From Escherichia phage Henuyfy11N: DNA of 41,103 bases. The translations under genes were made by a program, and so were the position numbers. This document shows positions 6,069 through 7,418 of the stretch, piece after piece. Position 1 is the first letter of the stretch. Every line of letters starts with the position of its first letter. Below the pieces are notes generated by a model. The model saw nothing but the letters and a program-made list of their open reading frames with translations, was not told where the DNA came from and ran no database searches. The DNA lies in the sequence record PV696613.1. One strand, 5' to 3'.

Positions 6069-6291
6069 CAATGTTACTCCGGTACTCCCGTAACTTCTCC
6101 AGGCTTTCAATTGCTTCCGCTAAGTCGGTTCCGGTGTCCTTATGCCCGCGAAGACCCATGCACAATAACTTCTTCAATGCGTGCTGTAGTGCGGGGTCAC
6201 GGATGTCGAAGGCACGGAGAACATCGTAAACGTCTACGGTCATAGTGCTGCCGTGAGTGTTTGTCATTGTTCGGTTGTATTTTGAAGTCAT
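6061..6291 (-). CDS. small hypothetical protein (76 aa) of minus-strand cassette
   Basis: start overlaps stop of upstream phosphoesterase gene by 4 nt (ATGA coupling). Confidence 0.35.
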   Translation of the reverse strand: MTSKYNRTMTNTHGSTMTVDVYDVLRAFDIRDPALQHALKKLLCMGLRGHKDTGTDLAEAIESLEKLREYRSNIDE

Positions 6292-7418
6292 CCCAGCATC
6301 TCCGGTGAAATAGTTAAACGTGCGACCTCGCCATATTCGGCGCTATAAGTAATTACATTTGCACTACGGCCTGACATCCACCCGCCGCGGGAGGCATAGG
6401 CGTCTTTAGCCGCTAAGGTGCGGTGTTGCTCAACAATCATGTTACGGCTTTCTACAATCTTCTGGTGGTGCAGGTGGCCTACGTGGGCGTAGCTATAGAC
6501 ACTCTCACCGAACGCTTTGCGGAATTTGGCAATCATAACCGGTTCGATAGCATCGAATCGCGCCTTATGCCCGTGGTGAAAGAACAACGTCGTTTTTCCG
6601 TGTTGCACCATCTTGTAAACATCCGGCGACGTATCGACGAACACACGCGGCTCATTATCGTATAGCGTGCTGAACATCTCAGCCAACCAAATCATGCCAC
6701 TCTCGTCGTGGTTCCCTTGCACAATAAGCAAGCGAACATTTTTATGCTTAACCAGCGCCATATCGACAACACGGCGGACCATGCGAATCATGTAGCGGAC
6801 AAGTTTCTGGTAACGGGTGTCGGCGTCAAGGGCGTGACCGCTTGCAGGTGTAACGGCAACCAGACTATCAAAGTGTGCAAGGTCGCCCAGCAGGTTAATA
6901 ACCCCTGTTCCAGCATCTGGCGCTTTCTGGAACGCAGCGTCGAACCATCGAGAGAACAGGTCTTCTGCAATCTTCATGTCCCAGTCGTCGCCGCTCTCGT
7001 CAGCCCATGCCAGCATACCGAGATGGAAATCAGATACCGTGTAAAGATTGAGTAGTTTATCGTCCCGTTTGGCCCGGATCGCTTTAACAGGCGCGACCGG
7101 GGTAATCTCCAACTTCATGCCTTCGATTATGGCTTTCATTAACTCGACCTGACGTTCTGCGTCTGTGTCGGTCTTAACCCATTGCAACTTGGTGTTGCCA
7201 AACTCGTCCACCAGCGACGATGTGCCTTTAATCTTGTAGCCATCTGGTACAAGGTGGCTAACGTCACGCCCGTGGCCTACACCTTTCTTAGCCAGCTTCG
7301 CTTTACGGATACGAATAACTCGGTCTGAGATGCCGTATTTACGGGCGATGTCTACATTCTTCATCCCGGCGTTCAATTCTTCCTGTAACTGTTCGTCGGT
7401 TATTTTCTTCTGGGCCAT
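6288..7418 (-). CDS. HTH domain fused to calcineurin-like metallophosphoesterase
   Basis: N-terminal HTH-like segment (MKNVDIARKYGISDRVIRIRKAKL); metallophosphoesterase motifs in canonical order: SDFHLG, GDLAHFD, GNHDE, HHGH, GHLHH. Confidence 0.6.
   Translation of the reverse strand: MAQKKITDEQLQEELNAGMKNVDIARKYGISDRVIRIRKAKLAKKGVGHGRDVSHLVPDGYKIKGTSSLVDEFGNTKLQWVKTDTDAERQVELMKAIIEGMKLEITPVAPVKAIRAKRDDKLLNLYTVSDFHLGMLAWADESGDDWDMKIAEDLFSRWFDAAFQKAPDAGTGVINLLGDLAHFDSLVAVTPASGHALDADTRYQKLVRYMIRMVRRVVDMALVKHKNVRLLIVQGNHDESGMIWLAEMFSTLYDNEPRVFVDTSPDVYKMVQHGKTTLFFHHGHKARFDAIEPVMIAKFRKAFGESVYSYAHVGHLHHQKIVESRNMIVEQHRTLAAKDAYASRGGWMSGRSANVITYSAEYGEVARLTISPEMLG

Follow-up and report, generated by a model that had tools for sequence, protein, structure and literature searches.

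The question raised by this locus is which reaction, on which substrate, is carried out by a protein in which an HTH domain is fused to a calcineurin-like metallophosphoesterase (HTH-MPE), and whose gene lies on the minus strand among the tail genes. The window, i.e. the whole stretch of DNA that was analysed (41,103 bp), is an essentially complete Kagunavirus (Guernseyvirinae) genome and is 99.9% identical to BUCT789 over the tested region; it is 332 bp longer than the circular BUCT789 record (PQ999132.1, 40,771 bp). The tail tube gene (4695-5867) is separated from the tail assembly chaperone genes (from 7975) by four minus-strand ORFs, the second of which encodes HTH-MPE; the cassette is laid out as follows:

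7811-7974, minus strand: divergent intergenic region with the likely promoter of the cassette (predicted by a promoter-like scan; perfect TATAAT at 7849-7854)
7484-7810, minus strand: first cassette gene, encoding a 108-aa protein with a signal-peptide-like N-terminus (MRKLVLALGFMSFATFGSPC); phrog_14165, no assigned function
7426-7430, minus strand: Shine-Dalgarno sequence GAGGA of the HTH-MPE gene, 8 nt 5' of the ATG
6288-7418, minus strand: complete HTH-MPE gene including the stop codon, ATG start, 376 aa (ORF list, phrog_704 match)
6061-6291, minus strand: 76-aa ORF, the start of which overlaps the HTH-MPE stop (ATGA); from the ORF list, not conserved outside close relatives
5895-6110, minus strand: last small cassette ORF, from the ORF list; BUCT789 annotates a shorter version (5895-6068)
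5872-5891, both strands: predicted bidirectional intrinsic terminator hairpin (8 bp, 6 GC) that closes the tail tube gene and the cassette

The preliminary description had placed the gene at 6288-7418, and this holds: the ORF encodes 376 aa on the minus strand, is preceded by a ribosome-binding site, and its product is identical to BUCT789 XQU49890.1, which is labelled 'calcineurin-like phosphoesterase'. Compared with close relatives, the dN/dS of the gene is 0.02-0.07, with the lowest values in the catalytic core (0.01-0.03), while the HTH part evolves faster (about 0.2 in more distant comparisons), yet is constrained; the set leaves out L032, for which the ungapped comparison was misaligned. 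HTH-MPE is a real, expressed-looking gene under purifying selection. The surrounding cassette is less uniform. The 108-aa protein is 96% identical to ORF18 of phage K1H, and the same slot is occupied by an unrelated 68-aa membrane protein with two TM segments in 18 other loci, 17 of them from close Kagunavirus relatives; this small protein looks like a superinfection-immunity protein. The 76-aa ORF matches only the C-terminal ~70 residues of PHROGs of 180-250 aa (2452; 17613, labelled 'ATPase'; 13223 and others) and gave no Pfam match; by eye, it resembles the small all-alpha DUF3310/MazG-like phage proteins. No family match was obtained for the last small ORF. The terminator is a perfect hairpin (AAGGCCCC-GAAA-GGGGCCTT) with T-runs on both strands, at the point where the tail tube gene and the cassette converge. 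When PADLOC profiles were run against HTH-MPE and its three cassette neighbours, none matched at E<=0.1, so that an identity of HTH-MPE as a phage-borne defence gene was rejected. On the other side of the cassette, the tail assembly chaperone ORFs (7975-8391 and 8481-8753) match the N- and C-terminal halves of PHROG 15027. Since both halves match one PHROG and K1H annotates a joined two-piece CDS there, they are presumably the usual programmed frameshift G/GT pair.

Within the protein, the following elements were delineated, in the order of the polypeptide chain:

7287-7397, minus strand: three-helix HTH, residues 8-44 (model helices 8-16, 21-28 and 32-44)
7239-7286, minus strand: flexible linker, residues 45-60 (pLDDT 61-68; residues 49-53 below 50)
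7107-7238, minus strand: family-specific beta-hairpin (residues 61-85) and helix (87-104), from the secondary structure of the model
6291-7064, minus strand: metallophosphoesterase catalytic core, residues 119-376
7017-7034, minus strand: motif I, SDFHLG, residues 129-134 (D130, H132), aligned with SDWHLG of Thermotoga maritima Mre11
6867-6887, minus strand: motif II, GDLAHFD, residues 178-184 (D179), aligned with GDLLH of T. maritima Mre11
6702-6716, minus strand: motif III, GNHDE, residues 235-239 (N236, H237), from motif pattern and alignment
6567-6578, minus strand: motif IV, HHGH, residues 281-284 (H282), from motif pattern and alignment
6465-6479, minus strand: motif V, GHLHH, residues 314-318 (H315, H317), from motif pattern and alignment
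6378-6434, minus strand: family signature VEQHRTLAAKDAYASRGGW, an alignment consensus that is not a general metallophosphoesterase motif

The five motif strings that had been read from the sequence at the outset are all present in canonical order, and when the protein was shuffled 200,000 times with its composition kept, the ordered five-motif pattern never appeared. The superfamily motif set DxH, GD, GNH[DE], H and GHxH is found at residues 130-132, 178-179, 235-238, 282 and 314-317, respectively. Across 76 aligned homologs with 33-50% identity to the query, D130, H132, G178, D179, N236, H237, H282, G314 and H317 are invariant, and together they make up the superfamily's set of metal-ligand and catalytic positions; H182 and D184 of motif II are conserved in at least 90% of the sequences. 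Structural modelling, proposed in the preliminary description as a check, gave a confident AlphaFold2 model (76-sequence alignment, mean pLDDT 92.6, pTM 0.79, core 95-99) with the alpha/beta sandwich fold of the calcineurin-like superfamily. A PDB sequence search with the single protein returned spurious matches only (STIV B204 ATPase, E 0.19). HTH-MPE scores below the Pfam gathering thresholds of PF00149 (18.9 vs 21.5) and PF12850 (20.8 vs 27), and some relatives exceed the Pfam threshold (e.g. P0132 at 25.1), so that, as judged by profile scores, the family is a divergent branch of the calcineurin-like metallophosphoesterases.

The N-terminal ~110 aa had been described as a single HTH-like domain. 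The HTH itself stands, but it is confined to residues 8-44, and the remainder is filled by the linker, the hairpin and the helix. For the HTH-MPE query alone the HTH call is weak (GerE, E 0.047; FixJ, E 0.0037), many family members match HTH models (Sigma70_r4_2, GerE, HTH_8, HTH_1 and HTH_50), and GerE and RhlR are the best PDB matches of the family profile over this region. In longer family members, the only N-terminal modules recognised are HTHs, one or two per protein. G74 and W80 of the hairpin region are conserved in at least 90% of the 76 homologs, and many distant homologs align with HTH-MPE only from about residue 55-78 onward; the hairpin and helix (residues 61-104) are conserved together with the catalytic core.

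An HTH of the sigma-70 region 4/LuxR/Fis type would suit a protein that chiefly binds DNA as a regulator or accessory factor and uses its phosphoesterase domain for sensing or for contacts with other proteins; it could act as a transcription factor or in a role like that of Bxb1 gp47. The latter is annotated as 'recombination directionality factor' and illustrates that the metallophosphoesterase fold can be recruited to non-catalytic roles. Furthermore, a weak match to a PHROG labelled 'late transcriptional activator' was obtained, and in a lambdoid relative the homolog adjoins the antiterminator Q. Against such a role, none of the catalytic ligands varies and constraint is strongest in the core, which argues for a retained enzymatic activity. 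Operator-like repeats near the cassette promoter were also not found, apart from short, imperfect ones at chance level, and the phage is virulent with no integrase to direct, as read from the annotation of the near-identical BUCT789. We therefore regard a regulatory function as quite improbable.

As a sequence family HTH-MPE is not new, but belongs to a very large, already annotated phage family. The profile of phrog_704 ('DNA repair exonuclease') matches residues 3-375 with positions 1-389 of 390 (E 1.7e-165), and phage T1 gp16 (ST16) is 45% identical over all 376 residues including the HTH (E 2e-113). The counterpart in phage TLS is gene 66 (gp66), renamed 'proof-reading exonuclease' in a recent re-annotation (PMC11447400). 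By alignment, HTH-MPE is thus a full, typical member of the phrog_704/T1 gp16 family, sharing its full-length architecture with T1 gp16 and TLS gp66 with no essential difference. Relatives were detected by tblastn in 2,044 of 50,697 phage records (roughly 4%), with carriers among Kagunavirus, Jerseyvirus, Dhillonvirus and Drexlerviridae as well as Vibrio, Campylobacter, Flavobacterium and N4-like roseophages, and a search of 50%-identity cluster representatives matched 4,583 clusters. The family goes under at least six contradictory names: its members are labelled DNA repair exonuclease, phosphatase, metallophosphoesterase, DNA polymerase II small subunit, DNA-binding protein, winged-HTH protein, proof-reading exonuclease and calcineurin-like phosphoesterase. 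In the searchable literature we found no experimental study of any member, and the gene is not mentioned in the text or supplements of a temporal transcriptomics study of a Kagunavirus, in which the supplement matches are host gene IDs (PMC12645636).

A back-translated VEQHRTLAAKDAYASRGGW pattern led to 24 bacterial loci, 22 of which have a called homologous ORF, mostly full-length. Full-length bacterial homologs (43-54% identity) occur in large contigs and complete chromosomes and, given this location and an integrase nearby in one case, are in prophages. Two viral homologs stand out for other reasons. In phage vB_Eco_AMO_3701M (L003, 3131-4264) the homolog is split into two adjacent ORFs annotated as 'hypothetical protein' and 'transcriptional regulator', which points to a frameshift, a pseudogene or an error in the sequenced record. 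A distant homolog (about 26% identity) is gp28 of the N4-like Roseovarius Plymouth podovirus 1 (L005, 4950-6110), which mass spectrometry identified in virions purified on CsCl (PMC4193335). This could reflect genuine packaging or contamination; if packaging is genuine, some family members may enter the cell with the injected DNA.

The gene neighbourhoods were surveyed in 80 viral contigs and 24 bacterial loci, using a crude gene call and clustering, and no universal partner gene was found across the viral and bacterial loci. A conserved small partner was not seen either, as the ORFs directly downstream in Kagunavirus, Dhillonvirus, Vibrio and roseophage loci have no mutual similarity. Within the Kagunaviruses, the HTH-MPE gene is constant and the flanking genes are variable. 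In K1H it is followed by a HAD 3'-phosphatase of the PNKP type (PF25109, E 6.7e-20) and then by a P-loop dNMP-kinase-like protein (phrog_139), an arrangement shared by about 11 close relatives. The respective segment of K1H (L002, 1463-2500; 1,038 bp) has been swapped in the present phage for an unrelated one of 394 bp (5894-6287) with two small ORFs, so that the 76-aa ORF takes the place of the HAD phosphatase. More generally, 29 of 108 loci, drawn from all identity bands, have a nucleotide-metabolism gene within about 4 kb, almost always downstream and on the same strand; these genes encode the HAD-PNKP phosphatase, dNMP kinase (PF21448), dATP/dGTP diphosphohydrolase (PF18909) and DUF7768 proteins. 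Further neighbours are HNH homing endonucleases, lysis genes and the small terminase gene. In T1, TLS and tonijn the gene comes after a block of helicase, VRR-NUC and Dam genes and before the lysis genes. Genes for HNH homing endonucleases lie directly beside the homolog in T1 (L089, 42028-42510), in TLS (L114, 9966-10637) and in several IMG/VR loci (clusters 17 and 26), and because such insertions recur beside the gene in different clades, the locus seems to be a homing hotspot.

The K1H arrangement raises the possibility of an end-healing phosphoesterase, i.e. a 2',3'-cyclic phosphodiesterase or 3'-phosphatase acting on broken RNA or DNA ends, which together with a polynucleotide-kinase-type HAD 3'-phosphatase and a kinase would repair cuts made by host defences, like the metallophosphoesterase module of bacterial Pnkp. 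Indeed, the metallophosphoesterase domains of Clostridium thermocellum Pnkp and of lambda phosphatase have 2',3'-cyclic phosphodiesterase activity, and the PNKP-type HAD phosphatase directly downstream on the same strand, followed by the P-loop kinase, is seen in K1H and 14 other loci from both close and distant clades. Yet the pairing amounts to only about 14% of the loci, the co-encoded kinase and 3'-phosphatase of such a Pnkp-like module have both been replaced in the present phage (5894-6287), and about 36 kb separate pnk from gp16 in T1. Moreover, the kinase is of the dNMP-kinase type (phrog_139, PF21448) and not a polynucleotide kinase, no ligase is annotated in the near-identical BUCT789 genome, and an HTH for duplex DNA fits the repair of RNA ends poorly. 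End healing is thus unlikely to be the function of HTH-MPE.

The frequency of nucleotide-pool enzymes among the neighbours would agree with a phosphodiesterase for small molecules, such as nucleotides, the cyclic (oligo)nucleotide immune signals of CBASS, Pycsar and type III CRISPR, or NAD-like dinucleotides, which would make HTH-MPE an anti-defence or nucleotide-pool enzyme. Promiscuity is a trait of the metallophosphoesterase fold; Rv0805, GpdQ, YfcE and MJ0936 are good structural matches of the model, and the Metis defence system includes a calcineurin-like domain that cleaves NAD+ (bioRxiv 10.1101/2025.11.05.686725). The Metis paper and a paper on daunorubicin, found because they mention phosphoesterases or Drexlerviridae, concern other proteins and not this family. 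With a small-molecule substrate the HTH would have no explanation, and we consider such an activity to be no likelier than end healing, that is, improbable.

A different context is provided by a lambdoid contig (L055, 3726-5496), where the order is O-like, DnaC-like, NinB, NinG, the homolog, antiterminator Q, lysis genes and terminase; in this and similar lambdoid loci, a small DUF6378-like protein precedes the homolog. The slot between NinG and Q is where lambda carries its metallophosphatase NinI (ninI). This position and the common superfamily might indicate a protein Ser/Thr/Tyr phosphatase like lambda phosphatase, acting on phosphoproteins of the host or the phage. By contrast, the sequence signatures and the structural ranking point away from protein phosphatases, and we hold this to be very improbable.

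The reading that we prefer, and to which we give about an even chance, is that HTH-MPE is an HTH-tethered, two-metal (probably Mn2+) DNA phosphodiesterase, i.e. a nuclease. The preliminary description had named a DNA-targeted nuclease and a nucleotide phosphodiesterase as candidate roles, and its interpretation is supported in part. The preferred reading draws on the conserved DNA-binding fusion, the nuclease-type structural neighbours, the Mre11-form motifs and the invariant active site, as well as on the DNA- and nucleotide-metabolism neighbourhoods and the precedents of phage T5 A1 and mycobacteriophage A10ZJ24 gp48, and it is from these that we infer the metal dependence, the DNA substrate and the biological role. 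In the proposed mechanism, the protein would be made from its own promoter in the small minus-strand cassette inside the tail genes, and the predicted promoter would render its expression independent of late structural transcription. The small N-terminal HTH on its flexible linker would hold the enzyme on duplex DNA, so that the Mre11/SbcD/DP1-like core with the family-specific beta-hairpin extension could hydrolyse DNA phosphodiester bonds. The metal site would be formed by D130, H132, D179, N236, H282, H315 and H317, with H237 as the putative catalytic histidine. The likely job, appealing in the case of virulent carriers, would be an attack on DNA during infection, in which the host chromosome is broken down or disabled, leading to host shut-off and a supply of nucleotides as with T5 A1 and A10ZJ24 gp48. 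The nearest alternative job is the trimming of phage replication or recombination intermediates, and the presence of homologs in lambdoid prophages keeps this intermediate-processing role alive.

According to the TLS paper, T1 and TLS break down the genome of their host and reuse the nucleotides by means of gene products yet to be identified (PMC11447400). The family is a reasonable candidate for the DNA-degrading enzyme of such phages. A stronger proposal, which we put forward tentatively and regard as rather doubtful, is that the family (T1 gp16, TLS gp66 and Kagunavirus HTH-MPE) might be the long-sought nuclease with which T1-like phages and their virulent siphophage relatives take apart the host chromosome and salvage its nucleotides, by analogy a single-chain equivalent of T5 A1 and A2. 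A host-chromosome nuclease would answer the question stated for T1 and TLS, would explain host shut-off, and would bear on the risk of generalized transduction and on the triggering of defences that sense genome degradation; the family would then be a source of triggers for defences sensing breakdown products of host DNA. If the protein is instead an end-processing or small-molecule enzyme, the widespread label 'DNA repair exonuclease' needs correcting. Either outcome matters for roughly 4% of the phage genomes sequenced to date, among them T1 and many candidates for therapy (Kagunavirus, Jerseyvirus, Dhillonvirus and Drexlerviridae).

Motifs I and II of HTH-MPE are of the Mre11 type (DxHLG, GDLxH) and in register with those of T. 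maritima Mre11, and the GDxHG, GDxVDRG and GNHE signatures of the PPP Ser/Thr phosphatases (lambda NinI) are absent. The profile matches to Mre11/SbcD are nevertheless not significant (best E 0.19-0.66), HTH-MPE has no C-terminal capping domain, the core running to the last residue (376), and its extra modules are an N-terminal HTH and beta-hairpin extension, both of which Mre11 lacks. A Rad50/SbcC partner gene is neither annotated in the near-identical BUCT789 genome nor present among the recurrent neighbours. The alignment with DP1 of archaeal PolD, a 3'-5' proofreading exonuclease, is limited to the phosphodiesterase core (209 residues, 12% identity); the OB-fold module is missing from HTH-MPE, no DP2-like gene is found in the BUCT789 annotation, and the T1-like carriers encode no DNA polymerase (PMC11447400). 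Lambda NinI, of the PPP family, shares with HTH-MPE the superfamily and, in the lambdoid relative, the equivalent nin-region slot. The genomic placement of the present gene is unusual for the family: T1-like phages carry it ahead of the lysis genes, but in Guernseyvirinae it is part of a cassette on the minus strand that is flanked by the tail tube and tail chaperone genes.

Two phage enzymes provide precedents for the proposed activity. A10ZJ24 gp48 is an Mn-dependent phosphodiesterase that degrades linear, circular and genomic DNA in vitro; the protein is made early, is toxic and compromises the integrity of the host genome, and its phage is temperate (PMC12287305). Motifs III-V of this Cluster A metallophosphoesterase (A10ZJ24 gp48, Bxb1 gp47, L5 gp54) are in register with those of HTH-MPE, but the protein comprises 255 aa, has no HTH, carries motif I at residue 10, occurs in actinophages and also acts as recombination directionality factor; homology to Bxb1 gp47 was rejected (hhalign probability 3.4%). 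T5 A1 is a predicted metallophosphatase that is necessary and sufficient for host DNA degradation and acts alongside the DNA-binding protein A2 (bioRxiv 10.64898/2026.04.02.716235). It belongs to another family (phrog_1745, 556 aa), is pre-early and tied to two-step DNA injection, and homology to HTH-MPE was likewise rejected (hhalign probability 17%, 19 columns around motif III only). As both fail the family-membership tests with HTH-MPE, they are mechanism analogies only. In this sense, T5 A1 and HTH-MPE are both of the stand-alone phage metallophosphatase type, with DNA binding provided by a separate protein (A2) in T5 and by the fused HTH in HTH-MPE.
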